64,000 nt of DNA from an uncultured Candidatus Saccharibacteria bacterium. Lineage in GTDB: Bacteria; Patescibacteriota; Minisyncoccia; Phycocordibacterales; SBAW01. How positions within the stretch are numbered: the first letter of the stretch is position 1; each line of letters opens with the position of its first letter. The position numbers and the translations under genes were made by a program. The notes beneath the pieces were generated by a model. It searched no databases. It worked only from the letters and a program-made list of their open reading frames with translations, and was not told the origin of the DNA. Of this stretch, positions 34,402-57,370 are shown one piece after another. Location of the stretch: contig CAZTNI010000002.1 in the NCBI GenBank assembly GCA_964615415.1, positions 104,687 to 168,686 of the forward strand, read 5' to 3'.

Positions 34402-34738
34402 GAATACTTGACATTTATTGTAAGTGGGTGTATTATAGTAAATGGAGGCTCTTCTATAGAGGTTTATTCTTACCTTGTCGGTGGAAAGCGGTGCTGTGGG
34501 GGCTTGCTCCTTATGCCCGTTTGATCCAATACCGTCAACGGCGAAGAAATACTCGTGAACAAGGTGTGAGGCCCAGCCTCTATCCTATTTCACCCTCTAG
34601 GGTTTGTCGGGTCCATAAAGTTTTGCCCGCTCTATCCAAACCCTGTTCCTCCCGTCAAAGATTCGGGAGTCGTCGTTAACTAACTAACATGAATAGGCCC
34701 GCTGTCTCTCTATTGGGATGGCGGGCCACTTATTTTTT
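34402..34738 (+). ncRNA. candidate structured non-coding RNA or long leader (unidentified)
   Basis: 337-nt coding-free gap between uvrB and uvrA; several hairpins (e.g. CTCCCG-N9-CGGGAG); ends with intrinsic terminator GGCCCGC...GCGGGCC + T7 at 34697-34738; only an R-rich low-complexity ORF. Confidence 0.3.
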
Positions 34739-34753
34739 ACAGATGAGCTACTT

Positions 34754-44673: not shown

Positions 44674-44747
44674 GTCGGGCTGTCGTATAGTGGTAGTATG
44701 TAGGCCGTCGGAAATTTAGTCGGGCTGTCGTATAGTGGTATTATGTA
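44674..44747 (+). repeat. tandem direct repeat of the tRNA-Pro 5' half (29 nt, 1 mismatch, 45-bp spacing)
   Basis: GTCGGGCTGTCGTATAGTGGTA(G/T)TATGTA occurs at 44674-44702 and again as the 5' part of the tRNA at 44719-44747. Confidence 0.7.
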
Positions 44748-44791
44748 CGCTTCGGGTGCGTAAGATCCGAGTTCGATTCTCGGCAGCCCGA
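44721..44791 (+). tRNA. tRNA-Pro (CGG)
   Basis: Acceptor CGGGCTG/CAGCCCG, anticodon stem TACGC/GCGTA with loop TTCGGGT, T-arm CCGAG-TTCGATT-CTCGG; weak D-stem; no encoded CCA. Confidence 0.6.
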
Positions 44792-44812
44792 CTAAGTTTC
44801 TGACAATTCATA

Positions 44813-45494: not shown

Positions 45495-46280
45495 GTGCTT
45501 GACCAGCCGACACTAACACTTGATCATCCTGCCGTGCAGGCAGCGAAGGATCAGTGGGAGAGGAGACTCGCTAAACGTCCCGCTCCTCGAAAACATTCTT
45601 TTACGTTCGAGACCTTTTTCGAGCGTTTTAGTGACACCACTCTACCTCTTTCGCATTTACAGAAAGAGACAGGTCTGACACGAGCCCGGTTGTATCAAAT
45701 CTATGACAGATATTTCCGTACTCTATTTGGAGGGGTGTCCGCACGGAAACGCTTCCAAAAGATACTGTCTCGCAAGCGCGCTGCAGAGCTTGAAACAGCA
45801 GAGCAAACATTGCTCAAAAAACATCCTCGCTGGCGGCATGTTGTAAAGCAAGCACAACTCGCTTCCTGTGTCGTGGAAGCGGTGCCTATGGGGAATCATG
45901 GAAAAGAAACAGGGAGGGTGCTTGCCACTTCCTTGCGCATTAATGGACACCTTTGCTCTGCTCACATTGCACGCACTGCCCGCAGGTTGGCAGACACCAA
46001 GCGGAGTTATGTGCGTGTGCAGCTGAGTACTTTGGTGGTTCAAAGAAAATATGCAGTCGTTATTCATACGAGAGTGAAGGATCAAAAGCCACACACGTTC
46101 GTAATCCCGACTGCAGACATCCTCGCTGCCTATCCTGCGCTCCGCGAAGGTAAAGATGTGATGTTGAACATACCAGTAGAACGGTCGTCGGCATCTCATA
46201 AAAACATGTCGAAGCTTGCGTATTGGAACTACGAAAATGCGTGGCACTTGCTACGCCCCGAAGAAACATCCGCCCCGTAA
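45495..46280 (+). CDS. hypothetical protein with HTH-like segment
   Basis: LSHLQKETGLTRARLYQIYDRYF is HTH-like; 261 aa; terminator at 46268-46300. Confidence 0.4.
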   Translation: MLDQPTLTLDHPAVQAAKDQWERRLAKRPAPRKHSFTFETFFERFSDTTLPLSHLQKETGLTRARLYQIYDRYFRTLFGGVSARKRFQKILSRKRAAELETAEQTLLKKHPRWRHVVKQAQLASCVVEAVPMGNHGKETGRVLATSLRINGHLCSAHIARTARRLADTKRSYVRVQLSTLVVQRKYAVVIHTRVKDQKPHTFVIPTADILAAYPALREGKDVMLNIPVERSSASHKNMSKLAYWNYENAWHLLRPEETSAP

Positions 46281-46305
46281 ATAGGGGCGGATTCTTTTTT
46301 GCAAG

Positions 46306-46339
46306 CATATTGACCATCGAGGTTTTTAATGTTAAAAAT
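46306..46339 (+). promoter_or_regulatory. sigma70-like promoter CATATTGACC-N16-(TG)TTAAAAAT
   Basis: -35 TTGACC and extended -10 TGTTAAAAAT; shares the upstream ACATATTGAC block with promoters at 47540 and 51294. Confidence 0.45.
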
Positions 46340-46408
46340 CTGCCTGGAAGTCCGGCGGTAGTTGCCGCCACACAACCTCTGTTCAATCAACCACGAAAGG
46401 GTTCTCTC

Positions 46409-47482
46409 ATGTGGATTCTCGCGCTTATTGCGCTCGGTTTCTTTGCCTACATGGCGTATGACTTTCTGAGAGTAAACAGTCTTGATACTGCAGTGGCAGA
46501 TGCATTTTTTGCAGCCTCTTCTGAGACACAAGCAGTGCTTGGTATAACTCTCTGCCTGGTTATTGGGTTTATTATCCTGCAAGGAACGACATACCGAGCT
46601 GCCAAAAAAGATCGTGAAATAGCGCAGAAGGAGGCAGGTAGTCTTGCGGACGACTTGCTCGAACTTCGTGCCAAGCGAACGGAGCCTTATGACGATCCTA
46701 TCGCAGAGCTTGCCAGAATGATGGGTCGTCCTATACCAACTTCTCGTGTCTTCGATCAAGGCGAAGAGTCGGAAGATGTGCTCAAGACACTCGGTACGAG
46801 TATCGAAGAGTTGGAGACACAGTTGGGTACGGTGCGTCGCGAGTTCGGCGACGATGATCGGGTGCAGGAACTCTCCGAGCGTCTTGGACGCCTGCGGACT
46901 TTGCATAGCGAAGCGATGCGGCGATTCGAGTCGATCGAGAGCCTCCAAGAAGAGACGGATCGTCTTCAGCAGCGTCTTACGTCAGCTTTTGAAAAGGTCG
47001 ACATCGACGACCTTGAAGCGAAAGTCGACGAGATTGCCGACTTTGTTCGCGAAAAGCGCGATGTTGTAGAACGAGCAGCTACGCTCGCGCAGTCGCTTCC
47101 GGCGCATACTACTCGTCTGAAGAATTTGGACGAGCAGTCTCGCAAGATGATCGATGGAGAGTCGGGCATCATGGCGCAGGTTCGCGCTGCGGAGCGGACC
47201 ACTGCCGTGGTGAAGGGCCGCATCGAACAGCTGGCGGGTCGGCAAGGGGATCAGCAGCGAGGTGTCGCCGCTATTCCACCGATTGGCCAGCGGATCAGCA
47301 CCCTCGCTCAAGAGGTTGCGACTATCGAACGCGACATGGACAAACTGGATACTGATACCGGGATCCAGCGAGTCAATAGCCTCGGTACTCGCCTAGAAGC
47401 GCTGCGTGTGCAGCTGACCGGTCACAATTCGCCGCCGGTCCAGAGGCAGCAGCTCGCGGTTGTCCCCGCCGCTGCAGAGTGA
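46409..47482 (+). CDS. membrane-anchored long coiled-coil protein
   Basis: Start at MWILALIALGFFAY (2 TM helices) then ~300 aa of heptad-rich coiled coil; GC-rich. Confidence 0.5.
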   Translation: MWILALIALGFFAYMAYDFLRVNSLDTAVADAFFAASSETQAVLGITLCLVIGFIILQGTTYRAAKKDREIAQKEAGSLADDLLELRAKRTEPYDDPIAELARMMGRPIPTSRVFDQGEESEDVLKTLGTSIEELETQLGTVRREFGDDDRVQELSERLGRLRTLHSEAMRRFESIESLQEETDRLQQRLTSAFEKVDIDDLEAKVDEIADFVREKRDVVERAATLAQSLPAHTTRLKNLDEQSRKMIDGESGIMAQVRAAERTTAVVKGRIEQLAGRQGDQQRGVAAIPPIGQRISTLAQEVATIERDMDKLDTDTGIQRVNSLGTRLEALRVQLTGHNSPPVQRQQLAVVPAAAE

Positions 47483-47503
47483 GTTCTTTTTGTGCAGTAA
47501 TCA

Positions 47504-47536
47504 AGCGCGGCCAGTAGGCCGCGCTTTTTCTTTTTG
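47504..47536 (+). terminator. intrinsic terminator after the coiled-coil gene
   Basis: AAGCGCGGCC-AGTA-GGCCGCGCTT + TTTCTTTTT. Confidence 0.75.
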
Positions 47537-47539
47537 ATA

Positions 47540-47574
47540 CATATTTGACGATACGCACTTTTAGTGTTAAAAAT
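47540..47574 (+). promoter_or_regulatory. sigma70-like promoter CATATTTGACG-N16-(TG)TTAAAAAT
   Basis: Near-identical architecture to the 46306 promoter; 45 bp upstream of the E2-like gene. Confidence 0.45.
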
Positions 47575-47618
47575 TTGTCAGACGGACATCGTCAATATGT
47601 CAACAAAGGAGTCTTCTG

Positions 47619-49016
47619 ATGAAAGAAGAAATTCTTTATTTTCTGCCGAAGACGCTCGAAAGCGCTTTTGCGTGTCTTGATGCCGAAGGGCTTACAGCTG
47701 TGGAGCGAATAGTCGAGATCGAAGGATTCAAATTCCCCGGTCTCGTCATCTCTGGGCCAGAGGAAAAGCTTGAGCATTTTGCTCGGACGGCACGCGTACC
47801 CGAAGGTGGGCCGCGTGCGAGATTGCTTACTAATTTGGAAAAGATCTACGGCTCGCGCCTTGTGTTCGATGAAAAAATCGAACTCTGTGGCGAAACTGTT
47901 GTGGACGACAAAATGTGTCACGTGCTCGGGCTCGAGGGTGTTGTTGCAAACCTGCCGGAATATGGGTGGGGCTTAGATAAACATACCGAGCTTCTGGACG
48001 AGATCAATAGTACGCTCGCCGATATTTCTGCTTGGGCGGGGAAACCTGTTCTTCTTGCGGCGCCTTCGGAAGTCGTGGTGGGTCTCCCGCTTATTCCAGA
48101 GACGCAGATCTGCGTCATTCTCGATAGTTCTCCGGCGGGACACTACTCTGAAATGAGGAGTAAAAAACTGTGCGGCGTTTCCTTCAGCGAAATCGATGAA
48201 GGTATACGCCACTCAGGACCGACCGCAGGGAGAGGGTATGTAGTGCGCGACGAAGATGGTACTGCAGTTGCACAAATTATCCGGAACTGTTTCTACCTCT
48301 TCTTGCCATATGATGTGCTCCATAAGCGCATGGTACTGACTCAGGGTGGAAACGGCCTCGGCCTCTTTCGTAAGACGCTCATGCGAGCATGGAATGCGCA
48401 GTTTGAAGCGCGTGATCCTCAGATAGAAGTGTTCGAAAGTGCTGAGGCATACGTTGCCTTTGGACGAGAGACGGTTCAGGAAGCGCCGAGGATCCTTCGT
48501 GCACTTGTGGACGCACACGACAAAAAAATCGCTGAGGCAGAAGAAAAACTGCGGAATGCGATATCTGAAAAACGTCGTATGCTCCGCCTGATCGAGCACT
48601 TAGAGCGCGAGGCGAGTGAACTGACGCCTGAAAAGTTGAAACAGAGTTGGAACAAGCTTACTCAGTTGCCACAGGTGCGCTCTATAGCTTCGGTAGATAA
48701 CGCACTCCAGGTCGAGACTAACCTGCTTGTGAATACGCAGTACGGTCGTCGGCCGCTCGGGCGCTACATCCTACGTCTTGCAGAGCAGCAGATCTTTGTG
48801 TGGTGTATCGAGTCGTGCCATCCGGCCGGCTTGTCGCATCCGCACATTGGCGTTAAACATGGTAACCCGTGTTTCGGCAACGTTTCTATCGCGATTCAAA
48901 AAGCAGCAAGCGAGTCTCGAGCGTATGCTATCGAGTTAGCTATCCGCTGGCTCGAAAGTGGATACGACCACGACCTCGCAGATATAAAGATCACTGAGTG
49001 GCCGGAGGCAGCGTAA
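47619..49016 (+). CDS. multidomain protein with C-terminal E2 (UBC-like) ubiquitin-conjugating-like domain
   Basis: C-terminal IFVWCIESCHPAGLSHPHIGVKHGNPCFGNVSIAIQ parallels the UBC HPN-x(5-8)-G-x-(I/P)C(L/F) catalytic motif; AAAGGAG RBS; stop overlaps the E1 start (TAAATG). Confidence 0.5.
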   Translation: MKEEILYFLPKTLESAFACLDAEGLTAVERIVEIEGFKFPGLVISGPEEKLEHFARTARVPEGGPRARLLTNLEKIYGSRLVFDEKIELCGETVVDDKMCHVLGLEGVVANLPEYGWGLDKHTELLDEINSTLADISAWAGKPVLLAAPSEVVVGLPLIPETQICVILDSSPAGHYSEMRSKKLCGVSFSEIDEGIRHSGPTAGRGYVVRDEDGTAVAQIIRNCFYLFLPYDVLHKRMVLTQGGNGLGLFRKTLMRAWNAQFEARDPQIEVFESAEAYVAFGRETVQEAPRILRALVDAHDKKIAEAEEKLRNAISEKRRMLRLIEHLEREASELTPEKLKQSWNKLTQLPQVRSIASVDNALQVETNLLVNTQYGRRPLGRYILRLAEQQIFVWCIESCHPAGLSHPHIGVKHGNPCFGNVSIAIQKAASESRAYAIELAIRWLESGYDHDLADIKITEWPEAA

Positions 49017-49658
49017 ATGGTAGAACGTAACTACTCGCACCAAGACGATTTCTTTAACCCTGCGAACGCTCGGTCGGTAACGCTAATCGGCTGCGGATCG
49101 GTCGGGAGTATGGTAGCGTACACTCTGGACAAGATGGGTGTGCCCACGCTTGAGATATGGGACGGCGACAAAGTGGATTCCCACAACTGCCCCATGTCGT
49201 TCTATGACGAACCTGACATCGGCCGCTTCAAGGTCGATGTGCTGGCAGAGCGGCTTCGTAACGCGCAGGTGGTCCCTCATCGGGCCATGTATGCCGGCGA
49301 AGCGCTTACGAGTAGTGTCGTTATCGCTTGTGTCGACACCATGGTTGCGCGCAAACTCATATGGGAGCGCGTAAAAATGGTGCCGAGCGTCGCTTTGTTT
49401 TGCGACACGCGTACGGCAGAGCTCTATGTCGAAGTCCTTACTGTCTCGCCCTGCGAGCATGAAGACATCGGCAACTACGAGCAGCTGCTCTACGGCGACG
49501 AAAAGGCGGTGCGTCAGTCGTGTGGCCGGCATGGGCTCATGACCGTTTCCATGCGGGCAGCGCAAGTGGTTGCTTCCAACCTTGCTGCGTTTTGGCAAGA
49601 TGGGAGAAAGACGTGGCGCGTTGGTGAGCGGACAGACATCCACCACCGCGCGTTCTGA
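49017..49658 (+). CDS. minimal E1-like ThiF/MoeB-family adenylyltransferase
   Basis: VTLIGCGSVGSMVAYTLDKMGVPTLEIWDGDKVDSHN (GxGxxG Rossmann plus acidic loop) and VIACVDTMVARK match the E1 adenylation fold; 213 aa; translationally coupled to the E2-like gene. Confidence 0.65.
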   Translation: MVERNYSHQDDFFNPANARSVTLIGCGSVGSMVAYTLDKMGVPTLEIWDGDKVDSHNCPMSFYDEPDIGRFKVDVLAERLRNAQVVPHRAMYAGEALTSSVVIACVDTMVARKLIWERVKMVPSVALFCDTRTAELYVEVLTVSPCEHEDIGNYEQLLYGDEKAVRQSCGRHGLMTVSMRAAQVVASNLAAFWQDGRKTWRVGERTDIHHRAF

Positions 49659-49688
49659 AGTACAACTCACAACCAGAGAGGAACAAGC

Positions 49689-49937
49689 ATGTTCGGAAAA
49701 GACAAAAAGGGAACGATCAACATCAAGCTGATCGTCGTCACTGCGGCGGGTACACCGGTTGGCGACCGCGAGGTGCCGGTCGAGGAAAGCGCGACCATCG
49801 CGCAGATCCTCGAAACCCAGGGGATCAGCACTGAGGGGATGGAAATTTCCGTCAACGGCAAGCCGACCAGCAACCTCAGTCAGAAGGTGCGAAGCGGCAT
49901 GCAGATCTCGGTCACCGAGCGCCCCAAGGGCTCGTAG
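49689..49937 (+). CDS. ThiS/MoaD-like beta-grasp (ubiquitin-like) small protein, C-terminus -RPKGS
   Basis: 82 aa; ...ISVNGKPTSNLSQKVRSGMQISVTERPKGS resembles the MoaD/ThiS C-terminal strand; immediately downstream of the E1; terminator at 49955-49988. Confidence 0.45.
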   Translation: MFGKDKKGTINIKLIVVTAAGTPVGDREVPVEESATIAQILETQGISTEGMEISVNGKPTSNLSQKVRSGMQISVTERPKGS

Positions 49938-49954
49938 TTCTTTTGTGCGACAGC

Positions 49955-49988
49955 AAGTGCGACCTACGGGTCGCACTTTTTCTTTTGT
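49955..49988 (+). terminator. intrinsic terminator after the Ubl-like gene
   Basis: AAGTGCGACC-TACG-GGTCGCACTT + TTTCTTTTG. Confidence 0.75.
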
Positions 49989-50065
49989 ATTTTTATGAAG
50001 AACTACGTATAGTAGGAGTGGAATTGGTACTGCTTTTTTGACTCACACACACGAGAGAGGAAAGC

Positions 50066-50458
50066 ATGAAAAAGATCGTCGTAATCGCCCTGGGGGCACT
50101 ACTCTGTGCGGGTGTCGTTGCCTATGCGCAAAATATAAATGCGTGGCGCGGACAACTGGAAGAAGTGGTGTTTATGGGAGATCAGCAGATTCAGCTTCGT
50201 TTTTTTGAAACACCTGAAGGTACCGGCGGTGCGATCGCGCTCGGGCGCGACGAAACTAACGTCTGCAGAACGCGTAATTCGTTTGATGATTTTGTATACG
50301 CACTCAACGCAGACGCAGATCGACAGATATGGGGAGTTACAAGTCGTTGCAGCGTCGAAAACTATGTTGCTGTATGTCTCGACCTCTCTGGTCGGGGACG
50401 CAGCGAGATGTGTACCTCCTTCACGCTGCTGCTTTGGGATATTGAGTGGATCGAATAA
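50066..50458 (+). CDS. small secreted hypothetical protein
   Basis: Signal peptide MKKIVVIALGALLCAGVVAYA; 4 Cys; bidirectional terminator at 50462-50496. Confidence 0.4.
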   Translation: MKKIVVIALGALLCAGVVAYAQNINAWRGQLEEVVFMGDQQIQLRFFETPEGTGGAIALGRDETNVCRTRNSFDDFVYALNADADRQIWGVTSRCSVENYVAVCLDLSGRGRSEMCTSFTLLLWDIEWIE

Positions 50459-50522
50459 GTAAAAGCCGCACCTTTTGGGTGCGGCTTTAGTTTTTGTGGG
50501 AACTTTCGACTTGAGGCAGCTG

Positions 50523-51170
50523 CTACCAGCTGTTCGATTCGTCATTCCACATCTCGGGGGTGAGCCCGGCGCGCGGAGGAACGATGTGCCCCTTCAGGAT
50601 CTGGCACATCCGCCGGACGTTGCGTCCGACCAGGACTCGGTCGGTCGTCTGCCAGTCGCCTTCGGATGAACCCCCCGCCATGTTCTTGTTGTAGAAGTAC
50701 GAGCAGAACGGCGGGATGTGCAGGCCCATGTGGTTGGCCGGACTGAACATCTTTTCATTCGCCGACTGGCCGCCATCTTCTTCGCATGCACTCATGAACG
50801 CGCCGACCTTGCCCGCGAGGCAATAGTCCGGGGCGTCTGTCGTGACTTGGAGCCAGCTCAGAAGAGCGAGCATCCGCGACGATGCGGTAAAGTTCCGCAC
50901 CGGTGTCGCGAAGATGATTCCGTCGGCCGCGAGAATCGCACGTACGATGTCCGGGAGGCGGCCCTCGTCGGGCAGCATCGCGATCCGCGTCTCGAGGTCG
51001 TAGACCTCTTCGTGCCGACGGCCATCGTCGTGCGGGATCTGGCCGAGGTGAATCATATTCACCTCGGTATCGACCAGCTCACCAGCTGCCCTGAGGGCAG
51101 TGACAAGCATGTTGGCGACGTTGCCGTTTTGGAACGGCGAGGCGTTGATGCCAACGATCTTGATAGTCAT
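50523..51170 (-). CDS. NADPH-dependent FMN reductase / flavodoxin-like fold protein
   Basis: MTIKIVGINASPFQNGNVANML... is typical of the FMN_red N-terminus. Confidence 0.55.
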   Translation of the reverse strand: MTIKIVGINASPFQNGNVANMLVTALRAAGELVDTEVNMIHLGQIPHDDGRRHEEVYDLETRIAMLPDEGRLPDIVRAILAADGIIFATPVRNFTASSRMLALLSWLQVTTDAPDYCLAGKVGAFMSACEEDGGQSANEKMFSPANHMGLHIPPFCSYFYNKNMAGGSSEGDWQTTDRVLVGRNVRRMCQILKGHIVPPRAGLTPEMWNDESNSW

Positions 51171-51293
51171 GTATGTTCTCCGTCGAGTTGATCTAGGGGT
51201 TGAGCCAAAGAGGGCTTCTACCTTTAATCATAGCATATTTCAACACAAAAGTCAAGAATAGCCGAGAAGTGTTTATGTATAGCCTGCGCCGAG

Positions 51294-51326
51294 AACATTG
51301 ACGAATATTAAAAATTACTGTATTTT
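51294..51326 (+). promoter_or_regulatory. sigma70-like promoter ACATTGACG-N17-(TG)TATTTT
   Basis: Shares the ACAT(AT)TTGAC(C/G) upstream block with the 46306 and 47540 promoters. Confidence 0.4.
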
Positions 51327-51371: not shown

Positions 51372-52667
51372 ATGCTTGTTACAGATGCAGCGCGCGAACT
51401 GATGGATCTTCCCAACACAAGCCTGCGGTTTGTCTTCGACGAAAAGCAACAGCAAACAAGTGCTCAAGTGCTTTTGCAGTGGTGTATCGACCCACAACTT
51501 GTCGCATTTTTGCGCGAGAACACAATCAAAGACCCATTCCTCTTTATTTGCGTTACCAGCCCGTCAGGGCGAGAGGAGCGGCGGATTGTGTCGCTGTGGA
51601 GCATGCAGGAACTCATTCAGTTCCACAGGCCAGGCATGCACACTGTCTATGGTCGCGTGTTGTGGGGACACGAGTCGCTCGCCGCTATGCGCAAGAAGTA
51701 TCTCAAGATGTGGAATCGCTTCGAGTATGAGAATGAAATCGCCCTAGTTCAGAAGCGTCAAAGTTCGCTCGGTCATGCCGAACTAAAGCTTGAAGTCCCG
51801 AAGGACTTCTTTGCGAAAGAACTTTCGGCATGGGAAAAGTGGTGGCTCACGCTGTGGCTGGGGGAATTGTGGGATGAATGCAACATTCGGCGTCGCCGTG
51901 CGTTTGCATATTTCATCCAAGGTCCACTCGTACTGGTGTGGCTCCTCATCTCCTTCTTGGTCCGGTTTGCTATAGCGGGGACCCTTAGTGGGTTACTCTT
52001 GGAGCGCAAGATCAACTGGAGAGCTGTCGTGCACCCGTTCGAATATGATGTCGAAGATGTGTGGGGCAAATGGGACGGTAGTCGATCTTTTTGGCATAAA
52101 GCGTTCGGCTCCCGTATTCTGTACAACGCCGAGGGTAGGAGGCGGCCTCCAGTTATGCATCTGCTATGGTTTGTCTTCCCGTTCTTCCATGCGACACTCT
52201 TTGTTTCTGTCACCGCCGTTGCTCTTACAGTAGATGCGCCGCTTCTTGAGATGGTGAAGTGGCACTTCTTGATCTTTGGCGGAATCTTAGTACTTGCGGC
52301 ACTCTTCGCAGCTATCACGACAATCGTCGCGTCGATCGGTATTTTCTGGGAGAGTGTAAAGAGAGAAAAAACCGCAGGGAAAACGTCGGAAGGTCAGCAG
52401 GCTGTAGGCATCCTCCCGTCTTGGCTGACAAAAGCGGGGAGTTGGTTCTATCGTATGCTCAACACTCCTGTTGATCGTCTCGGAAACTATGTCGCACGTC
52501 GAGCGGACGAACGTACCGAGCGGCTCTACCAGAGTTTGCAGTGCGACACAGTCCCCGAGTCAGGTCTACGACCCATACGGGCTCTGCCTGTTCCGGTGAC
52601 ACAGCGTGCACGTCTGCTGTACCAGCAGGCCAAGAGCAAGGTCTGCAAACCTATGGCTCGCGGATAG
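51372..52667 (+). CDS. hypothetical membrane protein (N-terminal soluble domain + multiple TM)
   Basis: 431 aa; AAAGGAG RBS; TM-rich middle and C-terminal region; terminator at 52695-52723. Confidence 0.45.
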   Translation: MLVTDAARELMDLPNTSLRFVFDEKQQQTSAQVLLQWCIDPQLVAFLRENTIKDPFLFICVTSPSGREERRIVSLWSMQELIQFHRPGMHTVYGRVLWGHESLAAMRKKYLKMWNRFEYENEIALVQKRQSSLGHAELKLEVPKDFFAKELSAWEKWWLTLWLGELWDECNIRRRRAFAYFIQGPLVLVWLLISFLVRFAIAGTLSGLLLERKINWRAVVHPFEYDVEDVWGKWDGSRSFWHKAFGSRILYNAEGRRRPPVMHLLWFVFPFFHATLFVSVTAVALTVDAPLLEMVKWHFLIFGGILVLAALFAAITTIVASIGIFWESVKREKTAGKTSEGQQAVGILPSWLTKAGSWFYRMLNTPVDRLGNYVARRADERTERLYQSLQCDTVPESGLRPIRALPVPVTQRARLLYQQAKSKVCKPMARG

Positions 52668-52694: not shown

Positions 52695-52723
52695 GATGCG
52701 GCCCACGGGCCGCATCTTTTTAT
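52695..52723 (+). terminator. intrinsic terminator
   Basis: GATGCGGCC-CAC-GGCCGCATC + TTTTTATT. Confidence 0.7.
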
Positions 52724-52761: not shown

Positions 52762-53058
52762 ATGATCTACGGGGCAGTACTTGCACTCCATATTGTTGCT
52801 GCGTGTGTAACTTTTGCAGTTATTGCGGGTGTAGGCATTGCGCTTTTGAAGCAAATGCATCGTTTCTATAAACCACTGGGTCTTTCGCTCGCTCTCGTTG
52901 CGCTTGTACAAATTGCAAGCGGCGTCATGATGATCGTACTTAATCCGGAACTCTCTGTACTAAAAGTTGGTCTGCACTTACTTGTGTACCTTGGCGTGTG
53001 TGTGATGGTTGAGGGTGCGCTCTACCTTAAGGCGCGCTCAGTTGCATGGACTTCTTAA
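52762..53058 (+). CDS. small membrane protein upstream of cyoA
   Basis: ~99 aa, 3 TM helices; start MIYGAVLALH follows the terminator; overlaps the cyoA start. Confidence 0.4.
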   Translation: MIYGAVLALHIVAACVTFAVIAGVGIALLKQMHRFYKPLGLSLALVALVQIASGVMMIVLNPELSVLKVGLHLLVYLGVCVMVEGALYLKARSVAWTS

Positions 53059-53861
53059 ATTTTTTTGACGTCTTAAACCCTGCGGGAACTATCGCCCTTG
53101 CGGAGCGCGGACTTATGATCCACGCAGCACTGTTCATGACTATAGTCACCATTGCGGTCTTTGGTCTGACTTTTTTCTTTGCGTGGTATTACCGCGCAGG
53201 GAACACGAAGGCGAAATATACTCCCGACTGGCAGCACTCGCGGATGGAGGAACTTGTCTGGTGGGCGATCCCACTCGAAATTATTCTTGTACTTGGAGCA
53301 TTAACGTGGACGAGTACACACAACCTCGACCCGCGTAAACCACTTTCAGCAGAACCGCCGCTTGTGGTGCAAGTGGTGGCGCTGGATTGGAAGTGGCTGT
53401 TTGTGTATCCGGAAGAACATATTGCGACGGTTAATTATGTGCGCATCCCGGTTAATAAACCGGTGCGATTTGAAATTACTGCCGACGCGCCGATGAACTC
53501 GTTTTGGATCCCGCGCTTGGGCGGACAAATTTACGCGATGACGGGCATGGTGAATCATTTGAACTTAGATGCAACCGAAGAGGGAACGTTTAAGGGATTG
53601 TCTGCGAACTATAGCGGTGAAGGGTTTGCAGATATGAAATTTACAGTCGAAGCGACCTCGCAGGAGGAGTTTGATGCATGGGTAGCACAGACAAAAATGC
53701 AGCACGCAGTACTAACAACCGACTCCTACGCTGCGCTTGCGGCACCGAGTGTGGTCGAAGAGCCTGTGTATTACGGAATAGTCGAATATAATTTATTCGA
53801 CCAGATCGTAGGAAAATTCATGGGGCACGCACATGAAGTGAATGAACACGCACATCAGTAA
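53046..53861 (+). CDS. cyoA: quinol oxidase subunit II (CyoA/QoxA-like, no CuA ligands)
   Basis: 2 TM helices plus cupredoxin-like domain NSFWIPRLGGQIYAMTGMVNHLNL without the CuA Cys/His set. Confidence 0.8.
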   Translation: MDFLNFFDVLNPAGTIALAERGLMIHAALFMTIVTIAVFGLTFFFAWYYRAGNTKAKYTPDWQHSRMEELVWWAIPLEIILVLGALTWTSTHNLDPRKPLSAEPPLVVQVVALDWKWLFVYPEEHIATVNYVRIPVNKPVRFEITADAPMNSFWIPRLGGQIYAMTGMVNHLNLDATEEGTFKGLSANYSGEGFADMKFTVEATSQEEFDAWVAQTKMQHAVLTTDSYAALAAPSVVEEPVYYGIVEYNLFDQIVGKFMGHAHEVNEHAHQ

Positions 53862-53864
53862 TAT

Positions 53865-55673
53865 ATGTTTGGAAACCTTACCTTAGACGCTTTCATACAT
53901 GGTCCGATAGAAACCGGCGCGCAGCTCATGGTTGTACTTGGCGGTGTGGCTATCGCCCTTTTGCTCACCGTCTTTAAACGGTGGGGATGGTTCTATAAAG
54001 AGTGGCTCACGACCGTCGACCATAAAAAGATCGGCATCATGTACATCATCCTCGCGGTGATCATGCTCTTCCGTGGTGCGATGGATGCGTTTATGATGCG
54101 TGCACAACAAGCGATAGCGGTGGGTGACAGCGTGGGCTACCTCGACCCAAACCACTTTTCGCAAATCTTTACGGCGCATGGGATCATTATGATCTTTTTT
54201 GTCGCTATGCCCTTGATGTTCGGGCTCATCAACTACATGGTCCCGCTCCAAATTGGTGCGAAGGATGTCGCGTTCCCGTTCCTGAACTCTGTCTCGTTTT
54301 GGCTTACTGCTGCAGGGGCGATGCTACTTAATGCGTCGTTAGTGATAGGTGAATTCGCGGCAACGGGGTGGCTCGCATATCCGCCGCTCTCCGGTATTGA
54401 GTACAGTCCTGGTGTTGGAGTCGACTACTACATTTGGGCGCTCCAGATAGCAGGTGTCGGTACACTCCTTTCGGCAATCAACTTTATTGCGACGATTCTG
54501 AAGATGCGGAAGGCAGACATGAAGTTGATGCAGATGCCTATCTTCCCGTGGACCGTGTTCGGCTCGATGCTGCTCGTCTTGTTTGCATTCCCGATCCTTA
54601 CCGCAACGCTCGCACTCTTGTCTTTGGACCGTATCTTCGGCATGCACTTCTTTACCACCGACCTTGGCGGGAATGCCATGATGTACATCAACCTGATTTG
54701 GGCATGGGGTCACCCGGAGGTGTACATTCTTATCCTCCCCGCGTTCGGTATCTTTTCAGAAATTGTGCCAACGTTCGCGCAGAAAAAACTCTTCGGCTAC
54801 ACCTCTATGGTTGTTGCAACGATGATGATCGTCTTTTTGTCGTTCATTGTGTGGGTGCACCACTTCTTTACGATGGGTGCTGGCGCAAATGTGAACGCAT
54901 TCTTCGGCATCATGACCATGGCTATTGCTGTACCAACCGGCGTAAAAGTATTTAACTGGCTCTTTACGATGTTCCGTGGTCGCATCATCTACAAAACCCC
55001 GATGCTGTGGTTTATGGGATTCCTCGTCACCTTTGTAATCGGCGGCATGACGGGTGTCTTGATGTCGATCCCTGCGGCGGACTTCCAGCTCCACAACAGT
55101 TTGTTCCTTGTGGCGCACTTCCACAACATGATCATCGGCGGCGTATTGTTTGGCATGTTTGCGGGGCTCTCGTATTGGTTCCCAAAAATATTTGGATTCA
55201 TGTTGAACGAGCGCTTGGGCAAGTGGGCATTTTGGTCATGGATCATCGGTTTTTTGGTCGCGTTTTTGCCAATTTATGCTGCAGGGTTGATGGGTATGAC
55301 GCGCCGCTTAAGCCAAGTGGAGCCGCAGTTCCAGCCACTCCTTATTGTTGCTGCAATTGGTGCGTGTATCATTGCGCTCGGTATTTTCTTCCAAGTGCTG
55401 CAAATTGTGGTCAGTATTGTGCAGCGCAAACAGCATCCTGCAGGAAATAATCCATGGAACGGAACGAATTTGGAGTGGACACTGCCGTCGCCGCCGCACT
55501 ACGAGCCGTACGACCCGAAGCACAACACGCTGCTTGGTGTGATGATAGCGGGGCTTAGCTTCTTTCTGGGGTTTGGGATCATCTGGCACATATGGTGGCT
55601 CGCAGCCGTCGCAGCTGTGGCGATAGTTGGCGGACTTATCCTGCGTACATTTAGATATGAAGGAGCACACTAA
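53865..55673 (+). CDS. cyoB: heme-copper quinol oxidase subunit I
   Basis: [23 protein letters not shown] and His-ligand pattern; 602 aa. Confidence 0.95.
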
Positions 55674-56217
55674 CACAGCAACATTCGGATTTTGGATCTA
55701 CCTCATGAGCGATGTGGTGCTTTTTGCATCGCTCTTTGCAACGTTTGCGGTGCTGCAAGGCGCAACGTTCGGTGGACCGACTCCAAAAGAATTATTTGAC
55801 CTACAGTTTGTGTTGTTTGAAACGCTGATCCTTCTTACCTCAAGTTTTACTGTGGGATTAAGTCTTTTGTCTGCACATGCAGGGAAGCGACAAGCAACGC
55901 TTATCTTCCTCGGCATGACCCTGCTTTTAGGCTTAGGATTTTTGGCGATGGAACTGACCGAGTTTCGTCATCTTATTGCGGAAGGGCATGGTCCCGGAAC
56001 GAATGCATATCTCTCCTCATTCTTTACGCTCGTCGGGACGCACGGACTCCATGTCTTTTTTGGCGCACTATGGATGATAGTGACGATGGTCTTTATTGCG
56101 CTGCGCGGCCTTGACCGTGCGCTCACAAAACTTGCGTGCCTCTCGCTGTTTTGGCACTTCCTTGATGTGATCTGGATATTTATTTTTACGCTGGTGTATC
56201 TTATTCCGATGCTATAA
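55657..56217 (+). CDS. cyoC: quinol oxidase subunit III
   Basis: [24 protein letters not shown] is a conserved subunit III N-terminus; start within the overlap with cyoB is uncertain. Confidence 0.75.
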
Positions 56218-56222
56218 ATCGT

Positions 56223-56552
56223 ATGCTTACTTCATCGCGCACATATGTTATAGGGTTCGCACTCTCTACACTGCTGACGCTTGCTGCGTTTGGCTTGGTC
56301 TTTCAATACATAGCAGGAAGTTTGCCCATAGCGCGCGAGTGGCTCATTGTTGCGCTTCTGGTGTTCGCGGTCGCGCAGTTGATCGTACAGGTAACGTGCT
56401 TCCTCCACTTAGGATCAGAAACAAAACCGCGCTGGCAACTCATCACGTTCCTCTTTTCCCTCCTTGTTGTAGTAATTTTAGTAGGAGGCAGCATTTGGAT
56501 CATGACCCATCTCACGCACAACATGATGCAAGACACCTCGCACGTGTGGTAG
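56223..56552 (+). CDS. cyoD: quinol oxidase subunit IV
   Basis: 109 aa, 3 TM helices, position in operon. Confidence 0.7.
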   Translation: MLTSSRTYVIGFALSTLLTLAAFGLVFQYIAGSLPIAREWLIVALLVFAVAQLIVQVTCFLHLGSETKPRWQLITFLFSLLVVVILVGGSIWIMTHLTHNMMQDTSHVW

Positions 56553-56644
56553 GGTTGGAGCGAAGTGCTTTGCAAAAAAGAGGCTATGACTTGGGCTAGC
56601 GCCCCCGGAGCGCACTCTTTTTTGTAATGCACGAGCTACTACAC

Positions 56645-57370
56645 ATGTCCGCAATCATTAAAAAATATTACTACCTCGCAAAGCCGGGGATCGTGCGCAG
56701 TAACGCGCTCGCTGCTGCGGCAGGTTTTGTATTTGCTTCAAGCGGCGCGATCAATTGGGGAGTGTTTGCCGCAATGTTGTTGGGATTGATAGGAATCATC
56801 GCAAGTGGCTGCGTGTTTAATAATTACTACGACCGCGACATAGACGCGCGCATGGAACGAACGGCAAAACGCGCCCTTGTGCGCGGCACTATTTCCGACG
56901 CACATGCACTTATATATGGAACAGTATTAGGAGTCCTGGGTGGGGCAGTGCTGCTTTTATATACTAATTTCCTGACGTTTGCTGTCGCGCTTGTCGGCTT
57001 TGGTGTGTACGTGCTCCTCTATACGCCGGTTAAACACAAACACCCTGTAGCGCTGTTTATCGGCGCTGTTGCGGGCGCAGTGCCACCGGTCGTGGGTTAT
57101 GTTGCGGTAACCAATACGTTCGACTGGTGGGCAGTGGTTCTCTTTACCTTTTTATATGTGTGGCAGTTGGTGCACTTTATGGCGATAGCGGTCTATCGGT
57201 ATGACGAGTATACGGCTGCTGGCGTGCCTCTCTATATAAAGGAGCGTCCGTCAGATGCCACAAAACAGAAAGCAAAAAAAGTATTTCACGTCTCGCTCGT
57301 TGTACTGCTTTTGTTTTGTGCAGGTCTTGTCGTGTATAGTTTATTGACTTTATTTAAAATTATTATATAA
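56645..57370 (+). CDS. cyoE: protoheme IX farnesyltransferase (heme O synthase)
   Basis: UbiA-family polytopic protein after cyoD; YYDRDIDARMERT motif. Confidence 0.8.
   Translation: MSAIIKKYYYLAKPGIVRSNALAAAAGFVFASSGAINWGVFAAMLLGLIGIIASGCVFNNYYDRDIDARMERTAKRALVRGTISDAHALIYGTVLGVLGGAVLLLYTNFLTFAVALVGFGVYVLLYTPVKHKHPVALFIGAVAGAVPPVVGYVAVTNTFDWWAVVLFTFLYVWQLVHFMAIAVYRYDEYTAAGVPLYIKERPSDATKQKAKKVFHVSLVVLLLFCAGLVVYSLLTLFKIII

Follow-up and report, generated by a model that had tools for sequence, protein, structure and literature searches.

Promoters of the sigma70/sigmaA type that carry an extended -10 (TGn) element combine a TTGAC -35, a 17-nt spacer and a TG one base before an A/T-rich -10. 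Three predicted promoters, which we call S1, S2 and S3, stand ahead of a coiled-coil membrane protein gene, of an operon for an E2-like protein, a ThiF-type mini-E1 and a putative Ubl, and of a second membrane protein gene in the window (the whole 64,000-nucleotide stretch of DNA that was analysed, from an uncultured, Patescibacteria-like bacterium with a small genome). The original prediction had joined all three into one regulon, with both membrane proteins as plausible effector or sensor components of the Ubl system.

The Bil, Bub and Cap2 E1/E2/Ubl systems (PMC10557695, PMC11601596, PMC10097602) resemble this cassette in three components, which here are encoded in one operon: a ThiF-type E1, a small Ubl-like protein and an E2-like protein that carries a Cys besides an HPN-like motif. 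Bil differs in that its E1 combines tandem adenylation domains with a Cys domain, whereas the E1 here is only ~215 aa long. The Bub E2 uses Ser, whereas the E2-like protein here keeps an invariant Cys; Cap2 and BubBD are fusions, whereas E1 and E2 are separate proteins here; and, unlike the described systems, the cassette includes neither a JAB peptidase nor a DUF6527 protein and its Ubl ends in GS. Transcriptional repressors often accompany other bacterial Ubl operons (PMC11601596), and the idea of a Ubl operon under a shared promoter-proximal control site brings this locus close to the repressor-controlled Bub and type II CBASS operons described there. Here, however, no regulator gene was identified beside the cassette, related loci show no conserved operator, and the sequence that S1 and S2 share falls on the core promoter.

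Results

Organization of the locus

The genes and terminators that bear on the three promoters are as follows.

46268-46302, plus strand: intrinsic terminator after the gene at 45495-46280 (hairpin 46268-46292)
46409-47482, plus strand: 357-aa coiled-coil membrane protein, with two N-terminal hydrophobic segments and a long coiled coil
47484-47534, plus strand: terminator module after the coiled-coil gene
47619-49016, plus strand: 465-aa E2-like protein, with invariant H407-P408-H409, C418 and G420 and a nearly invariant N421
49017-49658, plus strand: 213-aa ThiF-type mini-E1, with invariant C169
49689-49937, plus strand: 82-aa putative Ubl, with the conserved C-terminus TE[RK]xxGS
49938-49986, plus strand: terminator module after the Ubl gene
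51372-52667, plus strand: 431-aa membrane protein with about four transmembrane segments, its own promoter and its own terminator (52695-52716), upstream of the cyo operon

From 41 to 53 kb, almost all genes come with a consensus promoter and a hairpin terminator of their own. The predicted transcription units comprise the coiled-coil gene alone, the three cassette genes (47619-49937) as one operon, and the genes at 50066, 50523 (minus strand) and 51372, each alone. The terminator modules at 47484-47534 and 49938-49986 are paralogous, being alike over ~50 nt with two compensatory changes in the stem. For the two membrane proteins, the two hydrophobic segments and coiled coil of the first and the roughly four transmembrane segments of the second bear out the way in which they had originally been described.

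Such autonomous promoter-gene-terminator units recall the 'morons' of prophages and genomic islands, from which they differ here in that there are no phage or integrase genes and no match to phage records. A phage origin was rejected: megablast against phage records returned nothing, and the presence of uvrABC, tgt, ddl, purA and cyoABCDE in the window, with an ATP synthase operon beyond it, therefore identifies the window as cellular. Neither membrane protein had a match in viral contigs. A tRNA-Pro whose 5' half is duplicated sits at the edge. None of ten neighbouring proteins matched a DNA-binding family, and no regulator gene was identified; a 261-aa neighbour had no family match, and its structure model (pLDDT 40) was unusable.

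A cassette of E2-like, mini-E1 and putative Ubl genes

The label E2-like proved reasonable. Across 62 sequences of the family the HPH...C.G motif is invariant and the N that follows it nearly so, and a profile comparison (hhalign) with UBE2D2 aligned this motif with the HPN/Cys85 active site, at a probability of 44%. The structure model consists of a beta-meander followed by two helices; Foldseek found no PDB match for the full-length model, and the protein had no match in PADLOC or Pfam. Nothing beyond the protein itself and P0115 came out of word-indexed protein searches with the E2-like sequence or its profile, words from coiled coils having probably swamped the candidates. The mini-E1 matches PF00899 at 2.4e-14, and its GxGxxG motif and C169 are invariant in nine homologs; five homologs of the putative Ubl end in TE[RK]xxGS, with Gly second to last.

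Related loci share the cassette core

The E2-like and ThiF (mini-E1) genes are adjacent in 7/7 related loci, and the small Ubl gene comes next wherever the sequence extends far enough. The original prediction had suggested checking whether homologs of the membrane proteins at 46409 and 51372 co-occur with E1/E2 genes; at these seven loci, of which only three (L082, L083 and L090) have long flanks (more than ~1 kb), we detected no homolog of either, nor of the 130-aa secreted protein encoded at 50066. The conserved core of the cassette is the E2-like protein, the mini-E1 and the Ubl only. Both membrane proteins were likewise absent from eight Patescibacteria loci anchored on cyoB, and eighty cyoB-anchored loci showed no synteny with the cassette or the membrane-protein genes. 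The phage-like loci L084-L086 were left out of the comparison because they encode a JAB (HSH...S..D motif) and ThiF pair instead of an E2-like protein. Searching genome contigs for close relatives of the E2-like protein gave no match; a search with the E2-like alignment brought up four mostly short metagenome loci, and the same alignment found nothing among viral sequences.

Upstream of the E2-like genes of six other genomes, TG[T/C]TA stands at the same place in all and a TTGAC-like -35 in most. Only these generic TTGAC and TGnTA features are common; the motif specific to S1 and S2 is not conserved there, and promoters of other genomes that are unrelated likewise carry A/T-rich bases ahead of TTGAC.

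Anatomy of the three predicted promoters

The promoter features, all placed from sequence, are listed below.

46306-46339, plus strand: S1, predicted promoter of the coiled-coil membrane gene; -35 TTGACC at 46310-46315, 17-nt spacer, TGT followed by TAAAAA(T) at 46330-46339
47540-47574, plus strand: S2, predicted promoter of the E2-like/mini-E1/Ubl operon; -35 TTGACG at 47545-47550, 17-nt spacer, TGT followed by TAAAAA(T) at 47565-47574
51227-51255, minus strand: predicted promoter serving the divergent FMN-reductase gene, back to back with S3; TTGACT, 17-nt spacer, TATGAT and a TGn
51294-51326, plus strand: S3, predicted promoter of the 431-aa membrane gene; -35 TTGACG at 51298-51303, 17-nt spacer, TATTTT at 51321-51326

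All three are plausible sigma70-type promoters, with predicted activity and start sites. Their -35 hexamers (TTGACC, TTGACG and TTGACG) each match TTGACA at 5/6 positions, and each promoter is suitably positioned before a ribosome-binding site and an ATG. From the -10 to the ATG there are 70 nt at S1, 45 at S2 and 46 at S3, in agreement with the 45-70 bp given in the original prediction. The -35 lies in the context gCATATTGACC (46305-46315) at S1, aCATATTTGACG (47540-47550) at S2 and aACATTGACG (51294-51303) at S3. The block TGTTAAAAAT occupies 46330-46339 at S1 and 47565-47574 at S2, so that in both the TG of the extended -10 is in register (TGT-TAAAAA). At S3 the TG abuts the -10 hexamer, out of the TGn register, and the spacer holds a displaced TATTAAAAAT at 51306-51315, an A-run 2 nt past the -35 and not at the -10. 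With the spacer allowed to be 17 +/- 1 nt, a -10 hexamer whose second base is A and whose sixth is T is found at S3 as TATTTT at 17 nt; at S1 and S2 such a hexamer fits only as AAAAAT at 18 nt, and the 17-nt TGn register gives TAAAAA, with no final T (-7). S1 and S2 thus agree with extended -10 promoters in the TTGAC -35, the 17-nt spacer, the TG one base ahead of the -10 and the 45-70 nt to the start codon, and differ from them in lacking the usual T at -7. What held of the initial description was the existence of three sites with TTGAC[C/G], a 17-nt spacer and an A/T-rich -10, and what failed was the near-identity of all three, S3 having a different -10. Nor does each follow a terminator: S1 begins 8 nt past the T-tail of the hairpin at 46268-46292 and S2 is preceded by a terminator at 47503-47526, but the intergenic region that holds S3, 201 nt between divergent genes, contains no terminator. 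An alternative sigma factor was rejected because the -35 and the spacing are of the primary-sigma type and, to our knowledge, no known alternative-sigma consensus fits S1, S2 or S3.

S1 and S2 are alike, and S3 is set apart

The usual -10 of this DNA is TGnTATAGT, strongly enriched between genes: TGnTA...T reaches 1.84 per kb there against 0.42 per kb in coding sequence, and for TGnTA[TA]A[AGT]T the corresponding counts are 9 and 0. Predicted promoters with an extended -10 are thus the norm in this genome. The TAAAAA of S1 and S2 departs from the usual TATAGT, and the departure is common to both. The original prediction had asked whether theirs is a generic strong-promoter form; it is not, because the -10 is unusual and no further copy of the motif occurs in the window or the 8.4 kb beyond it (~72 kb scanned, in a contig of at least 294 kb).

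Outside TTGAC, S1 and S2 are identical at 28/52 positions, which ranks first among the window's 66 pairings of TTGAC-type sites (mean 15.4, sd 3.9; the next-best pairs reach 24, 23 and 22 of 52). They share the contiguous block TTTTA[A/G]TGTTAAAAAT, with 15/16 positions identical, and the motif ATNTGAC-N9-TTTTANTGTTAAAAAT at up to 3 mismatches matches S1 and S2 only, with 0.00 matches expected. These figures support the view that the likeness of the two predicted promoters far exceeds what promoter function would need. The identity of S3 is at background (16/52 to S1, 12/52 to S2), and a search with TTGAC-N15-TGTTAAAAAT at up to 3 mismatches did not find it. Given this background identity, the different -10 and the missing terminator, S3 is best described as an ordinary predicted TTGAC-type promoter and not a third member of the S1/S2 set. 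The claim of a third near-identical promoter is thereby lost, and that of identity beyond the -35 and -10 hexamers survives for S1 and S2 only.

An inverted repeat at S2

One further feature surrounds S2.

47541-47599, no strand: inverted repeat (12/13 nt) with arms CATATTTGACGAT at 47541-47553 and ATCGTCAATATG at 47588-47599

The left arm overlaps the -35, and the right arm would lie just downstream of the likely transcription start. The gapped self-complement score of 11 compares with 6.5 +/- 1.25 in shuffled sequence and was reached by 3/400 shuffles, which makes chance an improbable source of the repeat. The half-site CATATTGACGAT of S2, which recurs inverted at 47588-47599, matches CATATTGACCAT of S1 at 11/12 positions, and the -10 block of S1 is nearly self-complementary. 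The inverted repeat itself is absent from S1, and its arms are ~46 bp apart, which is not typical of a dimer operator. An antisense promoter starting from the right arm was rejected: it would have to use TTTTAA, TTTAAC or TTTTTA as its -10 and would have no gene to serve. An Rfam search of the untranslated regions found no RNA family.

Discussion

We favour, with a probability of about 0.7, a reading in which S1, S2 and S3 are three separate primary-sigma promoters, each with its own unit, S1 and S2 being a related pair, with no three-gene regulon and with membrane proteins that are not conserved partners of the cassette. Each would serve a promoter-gene-terminator unit of its own, the units lying among accessory genes of a Patescibacteria-like genome. 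The likeness of S1 and S2 would most likely reflect local copying of an intergenic promoter module, for which the paralogous terminators offer a precedent within the locus, or a requirement common to both core promoters, for a strong -35 together with TGT-TAAAAAT. Under S1 and S2, the adjacent coiled-coil gene and E2-like/E1/Ubl operon would probably be expressed at similar basal levels, and S3 would be another TTGAC-type promoter, back to back with that of the FMN-reductase gene.

The likeness could also be a coincidence between two A/T-rich consensus promoters, given that promoter regions are compositionally biased and that the next-best pairs put the tail of the distribution not far off. 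The contiguous block and the common -35 context, found at S1 and S2 only, and their position in adjacent intergenic regions make this very unlikely. We regard it as unlikely, with rather more in its favour, that a dedicated DNA-binding protein co-regulates S1 and S2, and not S3, by reading CATATTGAC[C/G]AT and/or the A/T palindrome TTTTTAA-TG-TTAAAAA over the -10, and so couples the coiled-coil protein to the E2-like/E1/Ubl operon. Sequence common to both beyond the canonical elements, the shared non-standard -10, the inverted half-site with its near-copy at S1, the self-complementary S1 block and the repressors of other Ubl operons all speak for such a protein; against it stand the failure to identify a regulator gene (including the 261-aa neighbour), a repeat that S1 lacks and whose arms are atypically spaced, a motif that six other genomes do not conserve ahead of their E2-like genes, and the absence of a coiled-coil homolog near the cassette in related loci. 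Quite unlikely, too, is the more elaborate form of this idea, in which CATATTGAC[C/G]AT half-sites inverted around S2 and the A/T palindrome over the -10 make S1 and S2 a dedicated operator-bearing pair, through which a putative regulator would co-activate the coiled-coil membrane protein and a previously undescribed, minimal cassette of a Cys-dependent E2-like protein, a 215-aa E1 and a GS-ended Ubl. Co-regulation of the S1/S2 pair alone is possible, and the -10 departure common to both might just as well be the sign of a dedicated regulator or of a special class of promoter. This point and the inverted repeat of S2, with its near-copied half-site at S1, tell against the reading we favour.

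The original prediction, one activator or operator site common to S1, S2 and S3 that ties both membrane proteins to the Ubl system, is highly improbable. All three sites do have TTGAC[C/G] after A/C-A-T, and an A-run, TTAAAAAT, somewhere near each. At the level of sequence this regulon is already contradicted: S3 resembles its supposed partners no more than background, its A-run is out of place, and the A/T-rich bases before TTGAC are shared with unrelated promoters of other genomes. The E2-like/E1 cassettes of related loci, moreover, have no homolog of the 431-aa gene near them. Because S3 is unlike the others, the motif is not conserved in six genomes, the membrane proteins do not co-occur with the cassette at seven loci and no regulator gene was identified, the three-gene regulon and the proposed role of the membrane proteins in the Ubl system come down to proximity.

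A promoter-based link to the two membrane proteins is thus no guide for annotating the Ubl cassette, and as found the matter is of little consequence, S1 to S3 being predicted standard promoters. If co-regulation of S1 and S2 were true, it would give a first handle on when an uncultured lineage expresses this uncharacterised conjugation cassette.

Two near-identical promoters and an ordinary one

The promoters of the coiled-coil membrane protein gene 46409 (S1), the E2-like operon 47619 (S2) and the gene 51372 for a 431-aa membrane protein (S3) most likely add three examples to a familiar class, the sigma70-type promoters with an extended -10.

Promoter sites and the divergent neighbour of S3
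S1: gCATATTGACC - ATCGAGGTTTTTAATGT - TAAAAA-T; -35 at 46310-46315, TGTTAAAAAT at 46330-46339
S2: aCATATTTGACG - ATACGCACTTTTAGTGT - TAAAAA-T; -35 at 47545-47550, TGTTAAAAAT at 47565-47574
S3: aACATTGACG - AATATTAAAAATTACTG - TATTTT; -35 at 51298-51303, -10 at 51321-51326
FMN-reductase promoter: 51255 to 51227, minus strand; TTGACT, 17-nt spacer, TATGAT with TGn

From the end of the -10 to the ATG, which has a ribosome-binding site in each case, the distance is 70 nt (S1), 45 nt (S2) and 46 nt (S3), in agreement with the 45-70 bp of the original prediction. Its statement that each site follows a terminator is correct for S1 and S2, which begin 8-11 nt past the T-tail of strong hairpin terminators (46268-46292 and 47503-47526, respectively), but not for S3, whose 201-nt intergenic region is divergent and has no terminator; there it stands back to back with the better promoter of the FMN-reductase gene.

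The three sites had also been described as near-identical. When the 12 TTGAC-type sites of the window were registered on TTGAC and compared pairwise over 52 flanking positions, S1 and S2 shared 28 identities, the highest value among the 66 pairs (mean 15.4, sd 3.9; runners-up 24, 23 and 22), whereas S3 matched S1 at 16 and S2 at 12 positions, which is background. The shared part consists of CATAT ahead of (T)TGAC, AT past the -35, the block TTTTA[A/G]TGTTAAAAAT (15 of 16 positions identical) and yTGyC 3' of that block. With up to three mismatches allowed, ATNTGAC-N9-TTTTANTGTTAAAAAT matched S1 and S2 only (0.00 expected), and TTGAC-N15-TGTTAAAAAT matched S1, S2 and two in-gene chance sites without recovering S3. 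The TATTAAAAAT of S3 sits in the spacer, 2 bases past the -35 and thus at a promoter position unlike that in S1 and S2, so that an aligner sets it beneath their -10. The identity counts and motif searches therefore leave a near-identical pair and, in S3, an ordinary promoter.

The generic -10 of this genome is itself extended (TGnTATAGT or TGnTATAAT), as reflected in pattern counts over 6.3 kb of intergenic and 57.7 kb of coding sequence.

Promoter patterns, intergenic versus coding
TATAGT: 14 versus 13
TGnTA[TA]A[AGT]T: 9 versus 0
TGnTA...T: 1.84 versus 0.42 per kb

Full promoters combining TTGAC and TGnTA are rare (five in the window, S1 and S2 among them; 0.9 expected). The check proposed originally was whether their motif is a general strong-promoter form; within the ~72 kb scanned it is not, since their -10, TGT-TAAAAA-T, differs from the usual TATAGT and no further copy occurs in the window or in the 8.4 kb past its right end.

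Origin of the S1/S2 likeness

We consider it most probable (about 0.70) that S1 and S2 are plain promoters whose core was copied or is convergent. Independently of the two sites, the coiled-coil gene and the gene of the putative ubiquitin-like protein Ubl are followed by paralogous terminator modules (47484-47534 and 49938-49986, respectively), alike over ~50 nt including the stop-proximal GTTCTTTT(T)GTGC, with two stem differences that are compensatory (GCGCGGCC/GGCCGCGC versus GTGCGACC/GGTCGCAC), which indicates that intergenic modules have been copied within this locus. The other possible source of the likeness is a constraint common to both sites, either a regulator or a specific promoter strength. 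Co-regulation of the pair ranks second and appears unlikely. An inverted repeat, CATATTTGACGAT (47541-47553) and ATCGTCAATATG (47588-47599), brackets S2 and is centred on the A-run of the -10; its score of 11 (6.5 +/- 1.25 in shuffles) was reached by 3 of 400 shuffles, and the inverted copy matches CATATTGACCAT of S1 at 11 of 12 positions, pointing to something extra at S2 that could be an operator or the remnant of a small inverted-repeat element. Against a regulator, however, the arms are ~46 bp apart, S1 is without a second arm, nothing comparable is conserved elsewhere, and no DNA-binding protein that might serve the pair or the larger proposed regulon is recognisable nearby (a 261-aa neighbour is without assignment).

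Pure coincidence comes third, and we give it little credence. Least credible is the three-member regulon of the original prediction, which fails on three of four features of membership, namely a motif shared by all members, its conservation ahead of orthologous genes, and co-occurrence of the member genes in the loci compared; for the fourth, a cognate regulator, the neighbouring proteins gave no DNA-binding family match. The identity of S3 is no higher than that of unrelated sites, and nothing ties the third unit to the first two.

Comparison with related loci

Seven related loci of other genomes were gathered via ThiF homologs and a metagenome scan, and promoter-like sequences could be tabulated upstream of several E2-like genes.

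E2-like upstream regions in relatives
L083: TTGACA-N15-TGTTAAATA
L088: TTGACT-N16-TGTTATATA
L087: TTGACT-N16-TGCTAGATG
L091: TTGTTT-N15-TGCTAAGGT
L082: TTCACA-N16-TAATAA, TG abutting the hexamer

The extended -10 position reads TG[T/C]TA in all of them (TGTAA in L082) and most have a TTGAC-like -35, while CATAT, the TTTTA block and any inverted repeat are absent from all of these tabulated regions. Past the Ubl gene of L083, the next promoter is full-consensus as well, yet is no copy of the first. The features conserved across genomes are thus the generic ones, and the sequence specific to S1 and S2 is private to this genome.

The suggestion that the two membrane proteins belong to the Ubl system gained no support either: tblastn found homologs of 46409, 51372 and the 130-aa secreted protein gene 50066 in none of the seven loci, of which only L082, L083 and L090 have long flanks, and no 51372 homolog adjoins cyoA in eight Patescibacteria cyo loci.

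Proposed transcription and genomic setting

Transcription by RNA polymerase carrying the primary sigma factor is expected to begin ~7 nt past each -10. The S1 transcript would cover the coiled-coil gene alone, up to the 47503 hairpin; the S2 transcript would encode the E2-like protein, E1 and Ubl, the first two genes abutting (stop 49016, start 49017), and stop at the 49955 hairpin; and the S3 transcript, again monocistronic, would encode the 431-aa protein and stop at the 52695 hairpin, after which the separately promoted cyo operon follows. Because S1 and S2 differ little in their core, the first two units should be similar in basal strength.

A phage origin of the window was rejected given the presence of uvrA, uvrB, uvrC, tgt, ddl, purA, cyoABCDE and two tRNAs; phage records gave no match, and the window runs on into an ATP synthase operon. 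The nearest CyoB is from a Parcubacteria genome bin (68%), with Saccharibacteria and Kaiserbacteria among the best matches, pointing to a Patescibacteria-like genome. Logan assemblies of runs SRR14271365 and SRR14271373 contain sequence of this genome, as does a 294-kb NCBI contig. The quinol oxidase operon cyoABCDE (53046-57370) is complete; bins of Parcubacteria, Kaiserbacteria and Saccharibacteria carry it too, their CyoB sharing 59-68% identity (59-64% outside the best match).

Between 41800 and 52720 nearly all genes come with a consensus promoter and a hairpin terminator of their own, and 8 of the window's 14 TTGAC-type sites fall here, between and after the two tRNA genes, suggesting that accessory genes, each expressed independently, form a patch beside the cyo operon. 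The first 32 nt of tRNA-Pro(CGG) (44721-44792) recur 45 nt upstream as a 94% identical copy (44674-44705), and its leader and trailer can pair over ~13 further bp (44707-44730 with 44781-44804). The arrangement could reflect a processing stem or else a recombination scar at the border of the accessory stretch. Elsewhere, a near-consensus promoter (TTGACA, 17-nt spacer, TATTAT) directly past the uvrB stop precedes ~300 nt whose predicted fold is far more stable than that of shuffled sequence (z = -5.4) and which close with a hairpin and T-run well short of uvrA (34875). This stretch (34408-34745, plus strand) has no Rfam match or tmRNA call and is a candidate unannotated structured RNA.

The E2-like family and its cassette

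With 253 representative clusters at E <= 0.001, the uncharacterised family of the 465-aa E2-like protein is sizeable; H407, P408, H409, C418 and G420 are invariant in it and N421 nearly so. In a profile comparison the motif lines up with HPN...Cys85 of human UBE2D2 (probability 44%), and a confident alignment-based model (pLDDT 87.8) places a beta-meander, the HPH/Cys loop and two helices, in that order, in the C-terminal part. The E2-like protein, about 450 aa long across the cassettes, has no Pfam, PADLOC or PDB sequence match, and Foldseek with the full-length model found none in PDB or BFVD.

Cassette loci
Window, 47619-49937
L082, 8628-10969
L083, 8874-10915
L087, L088, L089, L090 and L091

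A ThiF gene directly follows the E2-like gene in all seven related loci and, where sequence extends, is followed by a small gene whose product ends in TE[RK]xxGS. The ThiF-type E1 is about 215 aa long with an invariant Cys (C169), and the putative Ubl has 75-96 aa, the Gly of its conserved C-terminus being second to last. A distant homolog of this mini-E1 (30% identity) occurs in L084 (9343-10684), L085 and L086, phage-like contigs that are AT-rich and encode RecT and an intein-containing protein; there the position of the E2-like protein, ahead of the mini-E1 homolog, is taken by a 223-aa protein bearing a JAB/JAMM motif (HSH...S..D).

Unlike the Bil, Bub and Cap2 systems (PMC11601596, PMC10557695), the cassette is without JAB and DUF6527 proteins, and an E1-E2 fusion is likewise absent; its E2-like protein bears a Cys, its E1 has 215 aa and its putative Ubl ends in GS. 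No described bacterial Ubl system matches this conserved three-gene cassette, a gene context more unusual than the promoters but separate from the promoter question.
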